Assembly: GCA_037129835.1 (NCBI GenBank)
Contig: JBAXUE010000002.1
Location: forward strand, 66,334 to 130,333
From: a bacterium
GTDB taxonomy: Bacteria > Patescibacteriota > CPR2 > UBA1875 > CAIMLA01
Direction: 5' to 3'
DNA length: 64,000 nucleotides
Part shown: positions 18,853 through 50,842 of the stretch, piece after piece
Position numbering within the stretch: the stretch's first letter is position 1
How the letters are laid out: every line of letters starts with the position of its first letter
Notes under the pieces: model-generated
What the model was told of the DNA's origin: nothing
Seen by the model: the letters and a program-made list of their open reading frames with translations, nothing else
Database searches by the model: none
Program-made: the position numbers and the translations under genes

Positions 18853-18967
18853 AAATATATTTTATGCTATATATAGATAATAATGAAGAGAAATAAATAC
18901 AAATGGAGAAGGTCCGCGCCGGGAAGACGCTTTATATAGCTACCTTCTCGTTGCGGACCTCTTGGAC

Positions 18968-19342
18968 CTAGTCTTCGACCTCATCGATCCCGAGCATCGC
19001 TCTCGCGACTTCGATATCGGGTGCCAGGTCGAAGTTGTTGGTGTACTTCACCAACTTCTTAGAGACCTTCTCGTCCTCGGGGACTACGATCACAAACGGA
19101 ATGTGATCATTCATCAGGTACCGACCAAAGCTGTAGATACGGCCGATAGCCGCGCTACAAAGCTTGGTGACCATTGCGAGGTCGAGAATGACTCCGGCCT
19201 TGCGGGCCTTTATCAGAGTCTTGTCGAACTCGAGTCGGAGAACCGGCTCGACACTGTCGTCGAGATTTCCTCCGAGCTTCAGGATCACGGCCTTGTGGCC
19301 GTTACCTGCTTCGAACTTTTCGATACTGTGTACACAATGCAT
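18968..19342 (-). CDS. STAS domain protein (anti-sigma-factor antagonist SpoIIAA-like) in GC-rich module
   Basis: AVILKLGGNLD…GVILDLAMVTKLCSAAIGRI matches the STAS pattern v.l.G.LD…viDls.v.fiDSsGlg.l. Strong SD GAGGGGGA 4 nt upstream. Coding GC is visibly higher than in neighbouring genes. Confidence 0.55.
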   Translation of the reverse strand: MHCVHSIEKFEAGNGHKAVILKLGGNLDDSVEPVLRLEFDKTLIKARKAGVILDLAMVTKLCSAAIGRIYSFGRYLMNDHIPFVIVVPEDEKVSKKLVKYTNNFDLAPDIEVARAMLGIDEVED

Positions 19343-19351
19343 ATATCCCCC

Positions 19352-19666
19352 TCAGTCGGTTTCTAGTATTGCCGGGTTTTCGGAAAAGAACCATGAACCC
19401 CACAGCTCTCTCTTGACACCTACTTGCAGCGAATGTACCCACATTCCCCCTATGGGGATTTCGAAAGAGGGAAAGAAATCGAGTTCGATCTCTCCCTGCC
19501 AAACCACTTTCTCACGGTCAACGATATCGTAGATGACAAGTGAGTCACCGGTCTGGAGCAAGTGCAGGCCATCATAGCCGCCTTGCCTTCCTTCTTCTTC
19601 GAAGGCCCAGAAACCTCCTTCGGTTCCGGTCTCGAAGTAGAAATGTAACGTACCCACAAGTTTCAT
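19352..19666 (-). CDS. Hypothetical 105-aa protein (GC-rich), first gene of STAS two-gene module
   Basis: Start re-assigned to MKLVG, which has SD GGAGGTG 6 nt upstream. The longer ORF prefix overlaps repeat elements. No recognisable motif. Stop lies 9 nt before the STAS gene. Confidence 0.45.
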   Translation of the reverse strand: MKLVGTLHFYFETGTEGGFWAFEEEGRQGGYDGLHLLQTGDSLVIYDIVDREKVVWQGEIELDFFPSFEIPIGGMWVHSLQVGVKRELWGSWFFSENPAILETD

Positions 19667-19711
19667 GTGGCTCACCTCCCAAACGATGTTATCGTGATTG
19701 AGACAAAGAGG

Positions 19712-19740
19712 ATTATACAACATAATGAGTGTTCTGTAAA
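19712..19740 (-). promoter_or_regulatory. Near-consensus sigma-70-type promoter TTTACA-N17-TATAAT
   Basis: On the - strand: TTTACAgaacactcattatgttgTATAAT, positioned about 45 nt upstream of the 105-aa gene start. Confidence 0.5.
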
Positions 19741-19758
19741 GATAAACATATACTCCCC

Positions 19759-19863
19759 AGTCATCCATGGCCCGCTTTCGTCATCCTTGCGAACGCGAGG
19801 GTCTCTTTTGGCAACGTCATCCTGAGTCGAAACGAAGCTTGCCTGCGGTAAGCAGGGATCCAT
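19759..19863. repeat. Cluster of three GTCATCC-family repeat units (second terminus of the inverted pair)
   Basis: AGTCATCCATGG, CGTCATCCTTGCGAACGCGAGGGTCTC and CGTCATCCTGAGTCGAAACGAAGCTTGCCTGCGGTAAGCAGGGATCC. The last unit is 45/48 identical to the inverted copy at 16.06 kb. Confidence 0.65.
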
Positions 19864-20230
19864 GTCCACTCTCCTTATCGTTCGAATTCTAATGAGAACT
19901 ACAGATACAGGTTATATGTAGTTTTCATAGGATCTACGTAATCCAACCATCAGTTCGAAAAGAAAGAGAGTAAAGTAACGAAGTTATAATAAATAACTTC
20001 CGGTATCGGCTTGTTGTTATTTATTATATTTGAGCTACTGCAACGAATGATACTTTAAAGAATCTGTTAGGTTGGGCTTTTTGCACCACTTTTATTAAAA
20101 AAGTGGCATATATTATAATATAACGTTTAAAAGATATTCGCTAAAGTCGTAATTGCTCGACCTCGAAGATAGTCGAGTACACGGTACCAAGGCGATTTTT
20201 CATTGGGATTAACGCTTAAATATACCGCCC

Positions 20231-22356: not shown

Positions 22357-22431
22357 AGTAAGATTATATATGGTTTATGGTTTAGTGTCAACTATAAACT
22401 ATAAACTATTAATCAAATAATATTTCTGGTC

Positions 22432-22617
22432 TTATCGTATTACCCCTTCTCTTTTCTCGGCTTCTTCAAGGATTTCGTTGATTCCTCCATCAGATACGAG
22501 GAATTTGAAGGGCTGTATCAGCCTCTCGCCTTTTTTGGTGATGACTGTAGCAGTTTCATTCTTCATATTTACCTTTACTACTGTGACTTGGTTCTCAAAA
22601 TAATCAAATACTGTCAT
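22432..22617 (-). CDS. Hypothetical 61-aa protein, 8 nt downstream of DUF2130 gene
   Basis: Short ORF tightly coupled to the upstream gene. No motif. Confidence 0.3.
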   Translation of the reverse strand: MTVFDYFENQVTVVKVNMKNETATVITKKGERLIQPFKFLVSDGGINEILEEAEKREGVIR

Positions 22618-22625
22618 AATGCCCC

Positions 22626-24428
22626 TTACTTCTTATCGAGTATTTTTACATTTTTTTTAGCATAGTCAGCAGAGAGCATTTTGATCCCCGTATCTTTAAA
22701 AGAAACTCGAATTTCATCATCAGATATTCCCTCTACTTCGCCTATTCCGAAATCAGGATGACTGATAAGATCCCCAACTTCCAAGAAAGTTTCCGACTCT
22801 TCATCGATGTGTTCTACCACAGGTTCTTCGTCTGACCTATCTTCTACTCCTTTAGTATTTCCACTAAATATCGCTCGAAGTATTTTTTCTTCTGACGACT
22901 GAATAGCTTTTTCCTCTTCTACAGAAACAACTGTTTTTTCTACTTCTGTAACAGGTTTCTGGAAGTCATCTCCACCAGGAAGCTCTAGTGCCTTTATCTC
23001 AGGTAGGGCTATGTGACCACCAATATCACCATACATTCCTACAGTATTTGTGAGTACTCTGCTAAGCTGCTTTTCTCTCTCACACCATATCTTTTCGAAA
23101 GCGTTTCGCTCTTTGCGTATACCACTTTCCATAGCTCCAAAAGCCTCTACTATGGCCTCTACCCTTTGTTTAAACTCATTGCCCGTAAGGTATGTATATA
23201 GGTAGTCCATCTTGTCGTTCTTGTTGACTGCCAAGGCCTTCTCTCTATAGACATCCACCAGGCCTTTTCTCAGCACTGTAGCGAGTGCAATAGCATATTT
23301 TAACTCACATACCCAAATCTTTTCTATTTGTACGAATCCATGAGCATCTCCAGGCATAGCTGCTGTTACTATCACTCCGATATCTGCCTTTATAGCCCTC
23401 ATATCTTCTTTTAACTTATCTACCCAACCTGCACTCCAAGACTTGGTTTGCTTGGATTCCCAAGCTATTTTGCCACACAGAGCACCGGCTTTGTTTTGTA
23501 CTAGCTGTACCACATCAGCACCGTTTACACCCTTTGGTACTGGCGCGATAGCGTCAAAAGGAAAAGCGTCGGTTAGCACTTGTTCTAGCTCGAGCTCCTG
23601 AACTTCGCCTTGGGTTTGCATGGAGCCTTGCTCCAGCTTCCTAGCTAGATCGTCCTTTGCCCTGCTGACATTCGATAGCTTCATCTCTAGCTCAGCAATC
23701 TTTTTGTGCTGTTGCTCTTCGGCCTTTCTACCCGCTTCTTCTTGAATCTTCTGACGCTCCTCGTCTAGCTGTCTCATCTTCTCTAGCTCAAAGCTCTGCT
23801 TGTCTTCCTCTAGGGTAATCTTTTGCTTTCGAAGTTCCAGCTCTTTTTCCTGAGCTTTACGGAGCTTCTCGTCCTTTTCATTCATTTGCTCTTGGAAACT
23901 ACGTTTCTCTAGCTCCAGCTCTTTTTGAGTTTCGTCGGCTAGCTCTTTTTTGAGCTCTAGGCGATAGGCCTCAGTCTTCTCGGCGTATTTCTTCTCGACT
24001 TCGAGCTCTATCTTGATTTTTTCCTCTTCTAGCCTAGTCTTTTCTTTTCTGAGCTCTATTTCACTCTCTTGAGCTTTTTCGAGCTTTTCATTTTTTTCCA
24101 AAATTAACTGCTCAAAATTATGTTTTTCTAGCTCTAGCTCTTTTTTTGCCTCTATTGATAATTCTTTTTTGAGTTCTAGCCGATAATTTTCTATCTTTTC
24201 GGCATACTTTATCTCAGCCTCTAGTTCTATCTTGGTTTTCTCTTTTTCTATCTCAGATTCTCTGGTGGCCAGAAGCCTATTAGTCTGCTCTAGCTCATCT
24301 TTTAGCTTTTGCTGTTCACTACTTAGCTCTTTGCGAACCTTTAGTTCCATCTGCTCTTTTAGGATGTCGTCGATGTCTATATCCCAACCGCATTTTGGGC
24401 ACTTAATGTTTTGTTCTGAATCTGTCAT
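22626..24428 (-). CDS. DUF2130-like protein: N-terminal Zn-ribbon, long duplicated coiled coil, conserved C-terminal alpha/beta domain
   Basis: A CPKC…C start, then about 250 aa of E/K/L heptad-rich sequence containing two ~73-aa near-identical blocks. The C-terminal region (AIAPVPKGVNGADVVQ…IWVCELKYAIALA) resembles DUF2130. Confidence 0.5.
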   Translation of the reverse strand: MTDSEQNIKCPKCGWDIDIDDILKEQMELKVRKELSSEQQKLKDELEQTNRLLATRESEIEKEKTKIELEAEIKYAEKIENYRLELKKELSIEAKKELELEKHNFEQLILEKNEKLEKAQESEIELRKEKTRLEEEKIKIELEVEKKYAEKTEAYRLELKKELADETQKELELEKRSFQEQMNEKDEKLRKAQEKELELRKQKITLEEDKQSFELEKMRQLDEERQKIQEEAGRKAEEQQHKKIAELEMKLSNVSRAKDDLARKLEQGSMQTQGEVQELELEQVLTDAFPFDAIAPVPKGVNGADVVQLVQNKAGALCGKIAWESKQTKSWSAGWVDKLKEDMRAIKADIGVIVTAAMPGDAHGFVQIEKIWVCELKYAIALATVLRKGLVDVYREKALAVNKNDKMDYLYTYLTGNEFKQRVEAIVEAFGAMESGIRKERNAFEKIWCEREKQLSRVLTNTVGMYGDIGGHIALPEIKALELPGGDDFQKPVTEVEKTVVSVEEEKAIQSSEEKILRAIFSGNTKGVEDRSDEEPVVEHIDEESETFLEVGDLISHPDFGIGEVEGISDDEIRVSFKDTGIKMLSADYAKKNVKILDKK

Positions 24429-44765: not shown

Positions 44766-46043
44766 TTATCTGATTATGTCTTCCATCCCATGTTTTAAAA
44801 GTAATCTAATGAACTCCCCAGAGGTAAATATCTTTGCGAAGTTTGGTCCACTAGCGGTAAGGTCCGCACCTTCTTTTTCTGAGAGCAGCTTAAGTAGCGC
44901 TTCGGCTTCTTCTGGGTCAACGATATTTTCTACTGAGTGTGAGCTTTTCCCTCCGATTTGAATAGCTGATTTTCTTCTTTGTTTTCTTGTTTCTGACATG
45001 TAATAATCAGTCATAAATTTATCATAGTCTGGGTCCATCATAGATACCTCTCGATAGATTCCTTCATTGGTTAACTCAGTCATTTCTTCATTTATCTCAT
45101 ATCCGGTCATCATGACAGTGTCGCCTTCACTATTATCTATCCTGATTCTCCCACCCAAAATCTTAACAGCATATCCGTCTTTTAGTGTTCCGTCTGGTTT
45201 TAGTAGCCTTTCTTTGTAAAAGTTTTCAACTCTAGTCTTGAACTCGGCATTCTGCTTATAATGATTGTTATTTTTGATAAAACTGTTTATCAGCTGTCTT
45301 TCGAAATTAGCTATTATCACTTTTGCTAGTCTATCTTTTTCTTCTGGGTCGGTTACTAACTCTGGCTTTGACTCTAGGTGAATATATTCATGAGACAGTG
45401 TATGTGATACATCAAGTAGCTTCATTTGTCGTATTTGCTCTGGTGTATGAATAGCTGTGATCTCTGGGCTCTCAAACTGATATGAAAATTCCTGCATATT
45501 CTTTTTTACGTCTGCATAAGTCATATATGCCTTACCGTCCTCGACGAAGCTAGTAGTGGCAAATACATAATCTTTTCCTGGTTCTAGGTACATGGTGAAT
45601 TCAAATTCGTCCTTAAGAATCTTTTGTAGATCTTTTGTTTCAGTAGAACGACTGTCAGATTCTTTCTTTTCTATTACTTCGCCGTCCACTATTTCGAATA
45701 AATCGGCTGAGAAATCTGCTGCGATATCTGGGACAATTTTTTCCATTGCTTGTTTTACAGATATAGATGCTTCAGCTATCAATGATTGCATAACAGGGAT
45801 AATCTCTGCCTTTTCTTTCTCAATATCTCGGGTCATCTCATTAGCTTCATTTATTTGATCAATACTGTCTTGAGACCCCTTGGGGTCGTTCTCACGGTGT
45901 TTTGTAAAAAATCCCTCTGCTCTTGAGTAATCTTCTGTGCTAGGCAATGTAACATTGCGATCACTCGCTATTGCTTCTGCAATTTTCTTTACTACGAGTC
46001 CTTCTTTGTAGGCTTCGTCGTTGCTAAGTCTTTCTGGTGTCAT
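44766..46043 (-). CDS. Hypothetical 425-aa protein with HExxH (SHEYIH) motif; first gene of the giant-protein operon
   Basis: HEYIH motif. No TM. 13-nt gap to the DUF362 gene. Confidence 0.45.
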   Translation of the reverse strand: MTPERLSNDEAYKEGLVVKKIAEAIASDRNVTLPSTEDYSRAEGFFTKHRENDPKGSQDSIDQINEANEMTRDIEKEKAEIIPVMQSLIAEASISVKQAMEKIVPDIAADFSADLFEIVDGEVIEKKESDSRSTETKDLQKILKDEFEFTMYLEPGKDYVFATTSFVEDGKAYMTYADVKKNMQEFSYQFESPEITAIHTPEQIRQMKLLDVSHTLSHEYIHLESKPELVTDPEEKDRLAKVIIANFERQLINSFIKNNNHYKQNAEFKTRVENFYKERLLKPDGTLKDGYAVKILGGRIRIDNSEGDTVMMTGYEINEEMTELTNEGIYREVSMMDPDYDKFMTDYYMSETRKQRRKSAIQIGGKSSHSVENIVDPEEAEALLKLLSEKEGADLTASGPNFAKIFTSGEFIRLLLKHGMEDIIR

Positions 46044-46168
46044 ATTATTCTTCCCTTATTATCAAATATTACCTCAGTTAGTTGTTGTAAACAACCTTAG
46101 TTTACAAAAGTTCGGAGCCCAAGATCGGGCCCCATTAGGGTGCCGTCCATGGGCTCATATTGTTCTAC

Positions 46169-46492
46169 TTACTTCTTCTCGAAGGCTGGTGGTTTTACCC
46201 ACACACCTCTTTTGCGAAGTAGCTTATAGAAACCTTTTAGGATATCTTGGTATTCCGACTCTACAGTCGAAATGTTGAGCTGTTGCCAAGCCTCCTTTAG
46301 TTCTCGATACGAGATGTTGCTCGCTAGTGACTTCCACTGGTCTTGAGCCCCAAAGTAGAAGATATAGCTACTAGGGCCGCATCGCTTTCCGGTGATGTGT
46401 ATCACTATTTCTCGACGACGATTCGACTTGCATAAATAGACTTTGACACAGTTGTGTCGAAAGCATCTGCCGATAAAGCCAAGCTTACTCAC
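46169..46492 (-). CDS. Hypothetical ~107-aa Cys/His-rich protein in GC-rich island (probable GTG start)
   Basis: SD GAGAGGAGGA lies 6 nt before the GTG (VSKLGFIGRCFRHNCVKVYLCKSNRRR…). GC-rich coding sequence unlike its surroundings. Confidence 0.4.
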   Translation of the reverse strand: MSKLGFIGRCFRHNCVKVYLCKSNRRREIVIHITGKRCGPSSYIFYFGAQDQWKSLASNISYRELKEAWQQLNISTVESEYQDILKGFYKLLRKRGVWVKPPAFEKK

Positions 46493-46533
46493 GATGGGTC
46501 CTCCTCTCACTAGGGGCAGATTGTGCGACTACT

Positions 46534-46650
46534 CTAGCTGCGGTGCTTCTTCTTCCCTTTTCTTGGGTGAGCAGCAGTTACGGCCTTGCCACAACCTCTG
46601 GCGCAACATTTCCTGCAACGCCGCAGATCCTTTTCGTTACAGATTCGCAT
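46534..46650 (-). CDS. Candidate 38-aa Cys-rich basic peptide (MRICNEKDLRRCRKCCARGCGKAVTAAHPRKGKKKHRS)
   Basis: Strong SD GGGGGGAG 5 nt before the ATG. The longer annotated ORF prefix is AT-rich and probably non-coding. Confidence 0.35.
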   Translation of the reverse strand: MRICNEKDLRRCRKCCARGCGKAVTAAHPRKGKKKHRS

Positions 46651-47066
46651 GCTCGCTCCCCCCGATAGTAATGGATACCAGACTAGGTGATAATATACTA
46701 AAATATTTGTCAGAGCAAGGTAAATCTGCTCAAAATTAATTAATAATTGTAAATATATTTTGTAATATGCGGCCATTTTCTTTGCATAAAGCCACAAAGG
46801 TTCTCTCAGCTTTTGCTCAGATTTGATGTATACAATATAGATGTCATTTAAACAAGGAAGGAGATGAATGACAAAACCTGGCGAGTAGTGATCGCCGCTA
46901 TCAAGACTTGGCGCCACTGGAGGACACGAATTTCACAAAGAGTTGGTGCTAGTGTGTCGCAAAAGTCGGATAGCAAATACAGTTCAGGGCTAGAAGTACA
47001 TATTCTCAGCTCGGGCAGGGTCACGAAAACCACCACAACTAAATATATATTTTTCATTCCACTCAA

Positions 47067-47099
47067 AATAATAGAGGCCATCCCCCGGCCTCTATTATT
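47067..47099. terminator. Perfect 13-bp stem-loop AATAATAGAGGCC-atccccc-GGCCTCTATTATT, probable intrinsic terminator
   Basis: Verified stem and 7-nt loop. T-rich flanks on both strands. Confidence 0.5.
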
Positions 47100-47269
47100 A
47101 TTAATATCAATAATGCAAAAAGCCATCGTTTGGGAACGATAGCTTCCATAGGCATTCCTCTCTGTTGTTGGAATAATAGATGGTTTGCTGTTTGGTCGAA
47201 GTCCTCTGCGATATTACTCGCTCTCTCACCTACTGGTGAGACCCATGGGCTCCATTGTTGCGGTGTTGA

Positions 47270-47512
47270 CTAGCTTGGGAATTTGATTCGCTTGCCAATT
47301 TTTTCGGCTCTTACTGCCTTAAGGAATTCTTCGGGTTCTATCCCAAAGTGCTCCGAGAGCCAGTTTTGAACCTCACAGAGGGCGTAGTTGCGTTCCCACA
47401 ACGTATCTCCTCTAAAGGACTGTGAAGCCAAAGCGATAACCTCCGCTCTGCTAAAACTGTCATAACCGTCTTTGTTGGTACTGTTACTCCCTTTCTTCAT
47501 GATTGTCTCCAA
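47270..47512 (-). CDS. Hypothetical 80-aa protein (GC-rich island)
   Basis: ORF with acidic/aromatic composition. No motif. Confidence 0.35.
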   Translation of the reverse strand: METIMKKGSNSTNKDGYDSFSRAEVIALASQSFRGDTLWERNYALCEVQNWLSEHFGIEPEEFLKAVRAEKIGKRIKFPS

Positions 47513-47630
47513 TCGCTAAACGCTGGTTTGATCCAACGCTGTCGTCTTATGAACGACAAGAACTGATAGGACTTAACACAAACGATATTATAGTCATTTA
47601 ACGGGGTTTTGTCAATAAGCATCAATAATA

Positions 47631-47664
47631 AAGCCGAGGTGATCTTTCCCCCTCGGTTTTATTT
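47631..47664 (-). terminator. Intrinsic terminator downstream of ABC transporter operon (bidirectional character)
   Basis: AAGCCGAGG-tgatctttccc-CCTCGGTTT stem-loop followed by TTTTATTT. Lies 10 nt after the ABC ATPase stop. Confidence 0.55.
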
Positions 47665-47672
47665 AATGGTAA

Positions 47673-48554
47673 TTATTTTGCTACTTTGCCGTCGACTATC
47701 GTGATCGTACGAGTGCAGAGTTTGGCCACTTCTGGATTATGGGTAACAATTATAAATGTCTGCCCGTGCTGATTGAGTCGAACTATAAGATCCATTATTT
47801 CTTTGGTCATTTTGATATCTAGTTCTCCTGTAAGCTCATCACCAAATATAATTGCTGGTTTATTTACTAGAGAGCGAGCTATTGCTACTCTCTGCCGTTG
47901 ACCGCCCGAAAGTTCGTTTGGAGTGTGAGTAAGTCTATCTCCAAGCCCCACAAGCCTTAACGATTTTTCTGCAAGTGCCCTTCGTTCGTTTCTCGGAGTT
48001 TTTCCATAACGGAGTGGTAGCATCACATTTTCTATGGCTGTCAGCGTTGGAATCAGATTGAAAGATTGAAAGACAAAGCCGAGCTCGCTAGATCGGACTT
48101 CTGGTAGTTTGTTTTGACTAATTCCAGTAACATTGACGCCTCGTAGAAATATCTGCCCAGTCGTTGGCTCGTCTAGAAGGCCTAGCATATTTAAAAGAGT
48201 TGATTTCCCAGAACCAGATGGTCCCATAATAGCAACCATCTCCCCCTTTTTAATATCTATGTCCACGCCATTTAGGGCATGGACAACAACCCCTTTTTCA
48301 TTTTTGCCTTCTTTTATTTTTTTACCCGTTAGAAAATGATAAGTTTCGACGTATTTTTCTTTATCAAATAAATCTTGTGCTTTTTCTAGTCTTATCTCAA
48401 TTTCAGAAATTTTTTCAGTATTATTCTTTGAAACTGCTTTTTCATAAGCATGATGAAGTTTGTGGATTGCTTCCTGGGCCTTTATTGCCACCTTCTTATT
48501 CCCCATAATGTAAACCTTGCGAAGGTTATTAAGCTTTAGAATAGTATCGGCCAT
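47673..48554 (-). CDS. ABC transporter ATP-binding protein (FtsE/MacB/LolD-like) with unusual ~70-aa coiled insertion near N-terminus
   Basis: GPSGSGKSTLLNML Walker A, LSGGQRQRVAIARSL signature, and FGDELTGELD Walker B. Confidence 0.85.
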   Translation of the reverse strand: MADTILKLNNLRKVYIMGNKKVAIKAQEAIHKLHHAYEKAVSKNNTEKISEIEIRLEKAQDLFDKEKYVETYHFLTGKKIKEGKNEKGVVVHALNGVDIDIKKGEMVAIMGPSGSGKSTLLNMLGLLDEPTTGQIFLRGVNVTGISQNKLPEVRSSELGFVFQSFNLIPTLTAIENVMLPLRYGKTPRNERRALAEKSLRLVGLGDRLTHTPNELSGGQRQRVAIARSLVNKPAIIFGDELTGELDIKMTKEIMDLIVRLNQHGQTFIIVTHNPEVAKLCTRTITIVDGKVAK

Positions 48555-48556
48555 GA

Positions 48557-49711
48557 TTATTCCTCCCTCAGTGATTTAACAATACTGATTTTCACCGCAT
48601 AGTAAGCGGGGTAAATACCCGCAATTACGCCGATGGCGAGCGAGAATATCATTGAACCGATAAGTAACCTAGGAGTGAGTAAAAATATCTTGTCCCCAGT
48701 CTGCTCCATATAATAGTTCACTAAATATACAATAACAGCTCCAAGGGCTATCCCGATGGCGCCACCAAAAAATCCGATAACGCCAGCTTCTGTAAGATAT
48801 TCGAGTAATATATTGCGGTTTTTTGCCCCTAGAGCTTTCTTTATCCCTATTTCCTTAGTTCTTTCTGAAATTGACATCGTCATGGTATTGACTATTGATA
48901 GCGTGCCAACAAGAAGTGAGATGATACAAATTCCGTAAATAATTGAGTTAAAAGTTTGCATTGTAGATGCTATTTGGTCTTGAAATTGTTTCGGTCCAAG
49001 AGTATCAACGCCTTTGACCTCTTTCTTTATTTTTTCTGATAATTTATTTGGGTCTACACCTTTTTTAGGATAGGCAATAAAGCCATAAACCAGATCGTCT
49101 GGTTTCGTAGTATTTCTAAGTAATTCGGGTAATTCATTGTACATTATTTCTCTACCATCATGTAAAGAGACGGATATTTGAGTATCAGGTAGAGTGAAAG
49201 TTTTTTCGGCAATGCCAACAACTTCAAAATTTTTACCTCTAATTTTGATATTTTCTCCCACCTTGGCTTTTAGTTTTTTTACTAGGTCTGCGCCGACCAA
49301 TGCCTTGTTACGGTCTGAAGCAGTAATAGCTCGCCCACTAGTAAGTCTAATTTTAAAGCTTTCGTAATCGTTGGATTTTTCGTCAATGCTAATAATGTTT
49401 GCTAGTGGTCCAAGACTAGCAGTGATGTTATCACTAAGTAGTGAATAAGTTTCGGCCGCTACATATGCGACGCCATCGACTTTTTCTATTTCTTTTTTCT
49501 TATCAATCTTTAATGGGCTACTATATGTACTTATTTTGGCAGATATTTCTACTTTGTCCTTATAATATTCTGCCCCTCCATCTACAAGCAAACTCAGTTT
49601 CTCGGCGATAGCTCCCATAACCACAAGGGCCAGGATACCGATGGCGATACCAAAAACCGTCAGTAGTGTTCTGGTTTTTCGTCTCCACATATTTTTTAAG
49701 ATTTCAAACAT
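48557..49711 (-). CDS. ABC transporter permease of the FtsX/MacB/LolC family
   Basis: N-terminal TM helix, large extracytoplasmic domain, and a C-terminal 3-TM FtsX domain (…LGAKNRNILLEYLTEAGVIGFFGG…). Confidence 0.8.
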   Translation of the reverse strand: MFEILKNMWRRKTRTLLTVFGIAIGILALVVMGAIAEKLSLLVDGGAEYYKDKVEISAKISTYSSPLKIDKKKEIEKVDGVAYVAAETYSLLSDNITASLGPLANIISIDEKSNDYESFKIRLTSGRAITASDRNKALVGADLVKKLKAKVGENIKIRGKNFEVVGIAEKTFTLPDTQISVSLHDGREIMYNELPELLRNTTKPDDLVYGFIAYPKKGVDPNKLSEKIKKEVKGVDTLGPKQFQDQIASTMQTFNSIIYGICIISLLVGTLSIVNTMTMSISERTKEIGIKKALGAKNRNILLEYLTEAGVIGFFGGAIGIALGAVIVYLVNYYMEQTGDKIFLLTPRLLIGSMIFSLAIGVIAGIYPAYYAVKISIVKSLREE

Positions 49712-49761
49712 TTAATTCCTTATGATTATGAAAATATTTTAACATAATTATGAATGATAAA

Positions 49762-49816
49762 TAATAAAAAGAAAAGGCCCGCACTAGGGTAGGTGTGAAC
49801 CTTCTCTTTGCGGGCC
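49762..49816 (-). terminator. Intrinsic terminator (GGCCCGCA…TGCGGGCC 8-bp stem + TTTTCTTTTTATT) for GC-rich three-gene module
   Basis: Stem 49776-49783 pairs with 49809-49816. The U-tract on the - strand lies immediately 3' of the stem. Confidence 0.55.
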
Positions 49817-49828
49817 GTTGTGTCTTGT

Positions 49829-50191
49829 TTAGAACAGGGAGGGCTGGTCTTTCCCAGCAGCATCAGACGTATCTGATACTTGCAGTTTGTCGATAGGTCC
49901 CTTTGGAAACCTCTCGACAAACTCCTCGAGATTACTGTCTTGCACCAACCAGCTCTGTTCTATCTTGCGATTGAACTTCCTACTCAGTGCATTGCTGATG
50001 ATGTGTGAGAAGTTCACAGTAGTAGTGAACTCCCGGGGACGAGCGTGCCACGCGTCGTGTTGCTTCTGCGTGACATAGATACCGACACTCAAGCCGGCGA
50101 CCTTGAATACCCCGATGTAGGGGCAATTGGGTCTGGTGACCTTCATTTTTGTTACATCTGTAGTGCTAGTGCGTTTGGCCAAGCCAAACAC
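49829..50191 (-). CDS. Hypothetical 120-aa protein (GC-rich island B)
   Basis: ORF with 5-nt gap to the upstream gene. No motif. Confidence 0.4.
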   Translation of the reverse strand: MFGLAKRTSTTDVTKMKVTRPNCPYIGVFKVAGLSVGIYVTQKQHDAWHARPREFTTTVNFSHIISNALSRKFNRKIEQSWLVQDSNLEEFVERFPKGPIDKLQVSDTSDAAGKDQPSLF

Positions 50192-50627: not shown

Positions 50628-50635
50628 GCATGATT

Positions 50636-50667
50636 TACGCAAAAAACAGCCCTAAGTCGGGGCTGTT
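50636..50667 (-). terminator. Intrinsic terminator AACAGCCC-taagtcg-GGGCTGTT + TTTTTTGCG
   Basis: Verified 8-bp stem, and a T6 tract on the - strand directly after it. It terminates the 115-aa gene upstream. Confidence 0.6.
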
Positions 50668-50842
50668 TGTAATAAATTGCAGGTTGAGCCGCACTGTAGG
50701 GTAACAGTAGTGCGCGGCTTTGCCCATAGGCGAATCCTCTCTCATGAAGGGTTGTGGTATCTTACTTGAGTTATTGAGATTGACCTAATCCCAGAATCAA
50801 ACTGTTTCCAGTTACCCTTGATTCTGAGTGCAGAGTTTTGGG

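Follow-up and report, generated by a model that had tools for sequence, protein, structure and literature searches.

Island A is a 1.6-kb spacer with raised GC content in the genome of a bacterium from the Patescibacteria (the candidate phyla radiation, or CPR; GenBank assembly GCA_037129835.1, contig JBAXUE010000002.1). We analyzed it within a 64-kb stretch of this contig (positions 66,334 to 130,333), which we call the window and which we number from its first letter. The island extends from the stop codon of an ABC ATPase gene (47673) to the start of a gene for a protein of 425 amino acids (aa; 46043). An initial annotation of the window had listed small open reading frames (ORFs), Shine-Dalgarno sites, and hairpins in this region, and all of them are found in the sequence. 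On the minus strand, we find genes for three small proteins of 76, 38, and 107 aa. On the plus strand, we find a candidate small RNA (sRNA) at 46846-47105. The long ORFs between 3.4 and 63.6 kb of the window (3457-63585, or about 60 kb) are all on the minus strand, and the sRNA candidate is the sole plus-strand unit that we saw in these 60 kb. A search of the window for tRNAs found none, and neither did a scan of the window with Rfam 15 at gathering thresholds give any match. (The window sequence is also present, base for base, in a metagenomic contig, ENA ERZ27300174 k141_20016, and in shorter Logan and ENA contigs; NCBI lists the encoded proteins as hypothetical proteins WCP14_019xx of a metagenome-assembled genome.)

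Protein searches with the island ORFs returned a handful of near relatives each, and the contigs of these relatives represent three further lineages (L005/L009, L010, and L011). L005/L009 is 93% identical to the window across the left part of island A, and L010 is 84% identical to the window. The contig from L011 ends inside the terminator, and the core of the island (the 76-aa gene and the plus-strand element) was checked in L009 and L010. The suggestion in the initial annotation that this might be a small-peptide locus is supported: the 38-, 76-, and 107-aa ORFs are intact in the relatives and are under purifying selection among strains that are 84-93% identical. By sequence comparison, all three proteins are ORFans that are confined to this lineage. 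Searches with all of the island ORFs against Pfam, PHROG, NCBIfam, and PADLOC, and sequence searches against PDB chains, found no match, and blastn and tblastx detected no paralogous copy of the island in the rest of the window.

The right edge of the spacer is a terminator-like hairpin that closes the ABC transporter operon (47625-47672, minus strand; CCGAGG...CCTCGG with a U-rich tail; folding z-score of -3.9). Next to it, a promoter scan identified the promoter of the 76-aa gene, P1 (47587-47615, minus strand), which matches the consensus at 12 of 12 positions (TTGACA, a spacer of 17, and TATAAT). Both hexamers are invariant in L009, L010, and L011, and the spacer is altered in L010. We infer where the transcript starts, which would give it a 5' untranslated region (UTR) of about 80 nt with two hairpins (47501-47580, minus strand; z = -2.98). 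This region is 100% identical in L009 and 95% identical in L010. In the predicted fold, the Shine-Dalgarno sequence GGAGA is partly paired with the 5' end of the mRNA, and in the second hairpin, a U.G pair becomes U-A in L010. An invariant 20-mer from the 5' UTR had no match in the genome collection.

The 76-aa coding sequence itself is at 47270-47500 (minus strand). It was first described as an 80-aa ORF; the ORF exists, but a start at the ATG at 47500, which gives 76 aa, is more likely. The ratio of non-synonymous to synonymous substitution rates (dN/dS) is 0.14-0.26 in this frame versus 0.9-5 in the other frames. The protein is neutral and hydrophilic, with three predicted helices, a grand average of hydropathy (GRAVY) of -0.67, and no transmembrane segment (the highest 19-residue Kyte-Doolittle average is 0.23). 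We also considered a ribbon-helix-helix protein, which neither profile searches nor fold searches supported.

After the stop codon, the 76-aa transcript has a conserved and structured 3' region of about 160 nt (47112-47269, minus strand; z = -4.07). It ends in a terminator hairpin that we call T1a (47122-47143; z = -4.35 on its own), which is followed by UUUUU (47115-47121). All 37 of the predicted pairs in the 3' region are kept in the three sequences, and nearly all of the variation is in unpaired columns. In L010, insertions of 2 nt and 1 nt fall in loops, which argues against this region being coding. In particular, these indels put the middle of a candidate ORF (MRERV...) out of frame in L010. 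Another candidate, the motif AACAAT..GAGCCCATGG after the stop codons of the 76-aa and 107-aa genes, is not preserved in L009 and does not exceed chance level. Beyond T1a lies a bidirectional terminator, T1b (47067-47099, both strands), which is common to the two convergent transcripts. A repeat search found its perfect 13-bp arms, as first annotated, around a 7-nt loop; its stem has a compensatory change from G-C to A-T in L010 (checked by eye). T1b, T1a with its UUUUU, and the hairpin that follows the 107-aa gene (46113-46134/46156, with UUUUG) all have the features of Rho-independent terminators, and the terminators fold significantly better than shuffled sequences.

The plus-strand element (46846-47105) converges on the 76-aa gene. 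Judging from the sequences, the most fitting interpretation is a candidate structured sRNA of about 250 nt, in place of the 92-aa ORF that Prodigal predicts at 46864-47142. Three sequences share its fold: a 5-bp hairpin, an irregular hairpin of 78 nt, and a second hairpin of 35 nt. RNAalifold predicts 52-68 pairs, six of them compensatory (both sides have changed and are still paired), and 96.4% of the pair cells in the alignment are standard pairs. In a shuffle control, 2 of 500 alignments reach the observed score (which is not to be read as a probability), and slid controls have 0-2 double changes. The two strands also differ. There are 17 G.U cells in the plus-strand fold that would be A.C mismatches if read on the minus strand. 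The consensus energy from RNAalifold is -49.4 kcal/mol for the plus strand, with a favorable covariation term, versus -35.2 for the minus strand, and the single-sequence folds have z-scores of -3.26 and -1.71, respectively. Among these three sequences, the element has the generic properties of a structured sRNA: its fold is conserved and shows compensatory changes, a reading frame is not conserved, and it has a terminator of its own.

The region just upstream of the candidate sRNA (46789-46845, plus strand) is conserved as well, with 80% identity to L010. It includes a -10-like TACAAT (46831-46836), which is TATAAT in L010 and may mark the promoter of the sRNA. When we compared the island to Rfam 15, we found only sub-threshold matches that are driven by the terminator (the best has 26.7 bits, and the threshold is 55). 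A covariance model of the sRNA found no second copy in the window, and predicting targets in trans (by duplex folding and with blastn-short) gave only matches of 11-12 nt, which is chance level. Gene callers take the candidate sRNA for a protein gene: the ORF that Prodigal reports over this DNA has 92 aa and is on the plus strand in the window, has 78 aa and is on the minus strand in L005/L009, and in L010 is in another frame and has 34 aa.

The 38-aa and 107-aa genes are in the left part of island A. Upstream of them is a putative control region (46651-46788) that is AT-rich, with a GC content of 0.34, is unstructured (z = +0.41), and is missing in L010. The 38-aa gene (46534-46650, minus strand) encodes a basic peptide with five cysteines (C4, C12, C15, C16, and C20) and two histidines. 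Its Shine-Dalgarno sequence, GGGGGGAG, is at 46656-46663, 5 nt upstream of the start. With a pI of 10.7 and 14 lysines or arginines among its 38 residues, it is the Cys-rich basic peptide that was first annotated. Relative to L005/L009, there are four synonymous and two non-synonymous changes (dN/dS = 0.13), and all five cysteines are kept. The peptide had no match in Pfam, NCBIfam, or the sequences in PDB.

The 107-aa gene (46169-46492, minus strand) starts with GTG, and its Shine-Dalgarno sequence, GAGAGGAGGA, is 6 nt upstream at 46499-46508. The length of this ORF is kept through 34 substitutions, and its dN/dS is 0.32. Although the ORF, the GTG start, and the Shine-Dalgarno site are as first described, the basic protein is not really rich in cysteine or histidine. 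It has four cysteines and two histidines; three of the four cysteines are replaced in a homologue that is 83% identical, and the N-terminal cysteines are not conserved, so no conserved metal site is implied. An exhaustive search with phmmer found only an EF-hand-like repeat protein, which we judged to be spurious. Other plus-strand frames, at 46021 and 46443, have acquired stop codons in the relative. The operon ends with a terminator (46103-46156, minus strand), a long hairpin GAGCCCA...TGGGCTC with CGAACUUUUG (z = -3.2, and -4.5 in the relative), which is kept in L009 despite seven substitutions. This hairpin was initially placed at 46112-46147, but its arms are at 46115-46121 and 46150-46156.

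The adjacent 425-aa gene (44766-46043) encodes a protein with an HExxH motif (HEYIH) and no Pfam family. Its nearest named homologue is from a "Patescibacteria group bacterium," and the named homologues of this gene point to Patescibacteria as the taxon. A scan of a genome collection (GTDB) with the 425-aa gene found nothing, and JGI metagenomes gave one short contig only. More distant homologues (38-41% identity) occur in other Patescibacteria in unrelated gene neighborhoods, so they are uninformative about whether the island is present or absent.

We then compared the gene content of the strains, as the initial annotation had proposed, and found that part of the island does vary: L010 lacks both the ABC transporter and the block of 38-, 107-, and 425-aa genes. 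The ABC cassette (47619-49762, minus strand) comprises an FtsX/MacB-type permease, with the Pfam domains MacB_PCD and FtsX, and the ABC ATPase. It separates island A from a second island, B, which confirms that the two islands bracket an FtsEX-like transporter. In L010, the stretch that immediately precedes the permease gene (49763-49936) is fused to the promoter of the 76-aa gene (around 47618), which implies that the cassette is missing and that island A directly adjoins island B. (A short AT-rich repeat, TTTATTATT, is found at both junctions of the cassette.) On the other side of the core, homology to L010 ends at 46789; L010 has other genes there and lacks the 38-, 107-, and 425-aa genes. 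Past this point, L010 has a terminator and then two genes: an unrelated one for a 237-aa protein, on the other strand, and the DUF362 gene. The 237-aa protein (1113-1826 in L010, opposite strand) begins with a stretch that resembles a signal peptide and contains two internal repeats (...LTE(T/S)LTQAV(K/T)DGKLTE(A/D)QK...).

Between the window and L009, divergence is a mosaic of 0% and 7-25%. The ABC cassette is 100% identical while its flanks differ by 7-25%. Most of island B is also identical, and 45355-47066 differs by about 7%. The most divergent patch, 49823-50042, is the C-terminal half of a gene for a 120-aa ORFan in island B, with 55 differences in 220 nt (25%). With a dN/dS of 0.25, the patch resembles a recombined allele and not a decaying gene. 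(We considered a diversity-generating retroelement, but the substitutions are at all four bases and there is no reverse transcriptase nearby.) Finally, L011 combines a window-type ABC gene with an L010-type allele of the 76-aa gene. Together, the missing blocks, the mosaic divergence, and the combination in L011 indicate a hotspot of recombination and cassette exchange, and the 76-aa/sRNA pair is the constant core of this hotspot. Elsewhere in island B, between the 115-aa and 144-aa ORFs, 50632-50842 (minus strand) has a z-score of -3.07 and a strong terminator, ACAGCCCCGACUUAGGGCUGUUUUUU, at its end; it could be another structured 3' region or sRNA.

The initial annotation had described 46100-47560 as abruptly GC-rich. 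The GC content of this region is indeed higher, at 0.448 versus a window mean of 0.391 (standard deviation of 0.030 across windows of the same size; z = 1.93; top 2.8%), and 300-nt peaks reach 0.51. But the rise is modest, not abrupt, and five GC bumps in the window are as strong or stronger: 18.9-19.9 kb (0.54), 23.3-23.9 kb, 35.5-36.1 kb, 49.7-50.6 kb, and 57.3-57.8 kb. The tetranucleotide composition, which the annotation had suggested checking along with GC, is ordinary, and so is the dinucleotide signature: 14% of windows are equally far or farther in tetranucleotides, and 89% in dinucleotides. The small ORFs do stand out in their GC content at third codon positions (GC3), which is 0.51-0.56. 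In 41 reference genes, GC3 is 0.353 ± 0.047, with a maximum of 0.473, so the small ORFs are more than 3 standard deviations high. The excess GC probably comes from GC-rich RNA helices, from terminators, and from the high GC3 of the three small genes, and not from a foreign oligonucleotide signature. The core has a GC content of 0.43-0.44 in the window, in L009, and in L010 alike.

The bump at 18876-19900 is a second and stronger GC-rich island (GC up to 0.54), beside a gene for a P-type ATPase. It has two small ORFs (18968-19342, with a GC3 of 0.70, and 19352-19768), neither of which has a Pfam match. The window's strongest outlier in tetra- and dinucleotides is at 22400-23900, within a gene for a 600-aa DUF2130 protein (22626-24428), which also has a strong negative GC skew.

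We weighed several other explanations for these features. The plus-strand element could be a protein gene, for either the 92-aa product from Prodigal or a basic peptide of about 30-40 aa, possibly within a dual-function RNA. This idea would account for an invariant 24-nt sequence, AAGGAAGGAGATGAATGACAAAAC, with workable Shine-Dalgarno spacing; most changes in the first 13 codons are synonymous or conservative, and the frame stays open over 92 codons in the window and, in L009, as far as the comparison reaches. However, a 1-nt deletion in L010 cuts the frame to 40 aa, and indels of 3 and 11 nt come after it. Across the sRNA region, dN/dS is 0.64 in the plus frame (and 1.28 in the minus frame), and a hand count gives about 0.5 or higher across the first 30 codons. 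Two of the amino acid changes, R17H and H18R, are exactly the bases that are compensated about 40 nt downstream in the helix, and in the consensus fold, a CU-rich stretch further downstream is paired with the Shine-Dalgarno-like GGAGA. As mentioned above, the gene callers also differ between strains. So the small plus-strand ORF that was first annotated does exist, but it is not conserved as a gene, and a structured sRNA is the better reading; we consider a protein gene to be unlikely. Could the core instead be a type I toxin-antitoxin system, in which the sRNA would neutralize the mRNA for a toxic 76-aa protein, or for a small ORF in its 3' region, by overlapping its 3' end? The mRNA and the sRNA do converge on a single bidirectional terminator, and both of the other lineages that span it preserve the arrangement. 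The strong promoter looks constitutive, the 5' UTR partly sequesters the Shine-Dalgarno sequence, and there is an analogy with txpA/RatA and bsrG/SR4 of Bacillus subtilis. But the 76-aa protein is hydrophilic and lacks a transmembrane segment, as described above, instead of being a hydrophobic toxin. The sole hydrophobic mini-ORF (28 aa, 47149 to 47063 on the minus strand) is not conserved, as it loses its hydrophobic stretch in L010. The overlap would be at most the 33-nt hairpin, and zero if the mRNA ends at T1a. No toxin-antitoxin model in Pfam or PADLOC matches, and we found no adjacent toxin and antitoxin genes from known families, as would be expected for a type II system. The toxin-antitoxin idea from the initial annotation is thus not supported, and we regard the type I version as quite unlikely.

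The initial annotation had leaned toward imported DNA such as a degraded mobile element, and the island might be what is left of a prophage, integrative element, or transposon that was acquired horizontally from a donor with higher GC. Its GC content is in the top 3% of windows of the same size, the GC3 of its small genes is above that of every reference gene, these genes are ORFans, and the 38/107/425 block is missing in L010 within a recombination mosaic. Against this, there are no Pfam domains of integrases or transposases within 10 kb on either side and no tRNA in the window. There is no significant flanking direct or inverted repeat (a 10-nt repeat, CCATGGGCTC, is at chance level). The small ORFs are intact and under selection, and nothing is degraded. 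Although GC is raised (z of 1.9) and GC3 is more than 3 standard deviations high, the tetra- and dinucleotide signatures are native-like. Nothing in PHROG or PADLOC matches, two scans of viral contigs found no relative, and there was no donor among 5.8 billion proteins. The annotation had also reasoned that finding the same composition in relatives would speak against import, and this is what we see for the core, whose GC is the same in L009 and L010. Import is improbable. Another proposal would link the two variable blocks: the 38-aa cationic peptide could be a leaderless defensin-like or bacteriocin-like peptide, with the MacB/FtsX-type transporter exporting it or giving immunity. The peptide's five conserved cysteines and high charge would suit this role, the permease and the ATPase are 1 kb away, and the window and L009 each have the transporter as well as the 38-aa gene, while L010 has neither. 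But this co-occurrence comes from effectively two independent genomes. The two are also in separate transcription units, with the conserved 76-aa/sRNA module between them. The peptide has no leader, no double-glycine motif, no modification enzyme, and no match to a bacteriocin family; five cysteines cannot make three disulfide bonds; and its operon partner is a basic and soluble 107-aa protein. We consider peptide export to be very improbable.

On balance, we think that island A is probably an intact and strain-variable cluster of autonomous small transcription units, and not a degraded import, and we hold this view with modest confidence. In the core module, which is present in the window and in both of the other lineages checked, a sigma-70 consensus promoter would drive a 76-aa mRNA with a hairpin-rich 5' UTR, a structured 3' region of about 160 nt, and its own terminator. 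A structured sRNA of about 250 nt would converge on it from the opposite strand and end at the shared bidirectional terminator. The accessory module, in two of the three lineages, would be a two-gene operon for the 38-aa basic peptide with five cysteines and the 107-aa basic protein, with strong ribosome-binding sites and its own terminator. The sRNA may be a regulator that is tied to the 76-aa gene via the complementary terminator and 3' region. Alternatively, it may keep transcription of the 76-aa unit from running on into the operon that lies downstream. The 38-aa peptide may be a metal-binding (by its Cys and His), nucleic-acid-binding, or chaperone-like partner of the 107-aa protein. Whole cassettes (the ABC transporter and the 38/107/425 block) would come and go between co-occurring strains.

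Several points weigh against this interpretation. We found no good -35 element upstream of the sRNA candidate. The RNA fold is derived from three distinct sequences, for which covariation statistics are weak, and the shuffle control does not convert into a probability for the fold. A short ORF might still be translated, given a conserved AAGGAAGGAG-ATG and about 13 codons that are well preserved. The coding signal for the 38-aa peptide comes from six substitutions (one-sided p of about 0.02). And antisense action is doubtful because the RNAs would not overlap if the 76-aa mRNA stops at T1a. A bolder extension of our preferred reading is that the 76-aa/sRNA pair could be a CPR-specific, antisense-controlled module, maybe a toxin-antitoxin element (non-canonical and type I-like) or an addiction element, whose effector would be soluble. 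It would then anchor a hotspot that swaps the ABC transporter and the block of the Cys-rich peptide and the PUR-like protein between co-occurring episymbiont strains. We give this extension little credence.

To our knowledge, the regulatory RNAs and small proteins of Patescibacteria are almost unknown, and we found no literature on sRNAs or type I systems in this group. If confirmed, island A would provide an sRNA family that is supported by covariation and that annotations now list as a hypothetical protein, a trio of small ORFan proteins maintained by evolution, and a clear case of strain-level gain and loss of cassettes, including a whole ABC transporter, in an ultra-small genome. It would also illustrate that non-coding RNAs (ncRNAs) can go unnoticed in AT-rich metagenome-assembled genomes where GC rises modestly and gene calls are inconsistent. 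Given the thin evidence, the impact is modest.

How does island A compare to known systems? The 3'-overlapping pairs txpA/RatA and bsrG/SR4 of B. subtilis are type I toxin-antitoxin systems. As in those pairs, an mRNA and an sRNA of about 200-250 nt would converge on one terminator, and the linkage is kept between strains. But the protein in island A is hydrophilic and has 76 aa, instead of being a hydrophobic peptide of less than 60 aa, and the overlap would be at most about 33 nt. The 38-aa peptide resembles bL36 and its paralogue YkgO, which are small basic zinc-knuckle or zinc-ribbon peptides: it has about the same length (about 38 aa), is very basic, and has a cysteine cluster with CxxC, a later histidine, and a tail rich in lysine and arginine. 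However, its spacing (C-x7-C-x2-CC-x3-C-x7-H) is not that of bL36, the database searches with it found no match, and its gene is outside of any ribosomal operon. For the 107-aa protein, a structure model with a moderate predicted local distance difference test score (pLDDT of 69) weakly suggests a beta-beta-beta-beta-alpha arrangement like that of the PUR/Whirly proteins, which bind single-stranded nucleic acids. Its top fold match is a de novo designed protein. Unlike Pur-alpha (3k44) or Borrelia Pur-alpha (3n8b), to which it has no sequence similarity, the model has three helices after the sheet instead of one.

The candidate sRNA can be compared to the ncRNAs that are enriched in long GC-rich intergenic regions (GC-IGRs) of AT-rich genomes (Stav et al. 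2019, PMC6429828). Like them, it is in a gene-poor spacer with raised GC in a genome of 39% GC, and it has conserved helices, compensatory changes, and inconsistent ORF calls over the RNA. Unlike them, it matches no existing Rfam family and is represented by three sequences from one lineage, and it would be a free-standing convergent unit, not a 5' leader or a riboswitch. As far as the sequences indicate, the best description of the parts of island A is an unclassified candidate sRNA together with small ORFan proteins.

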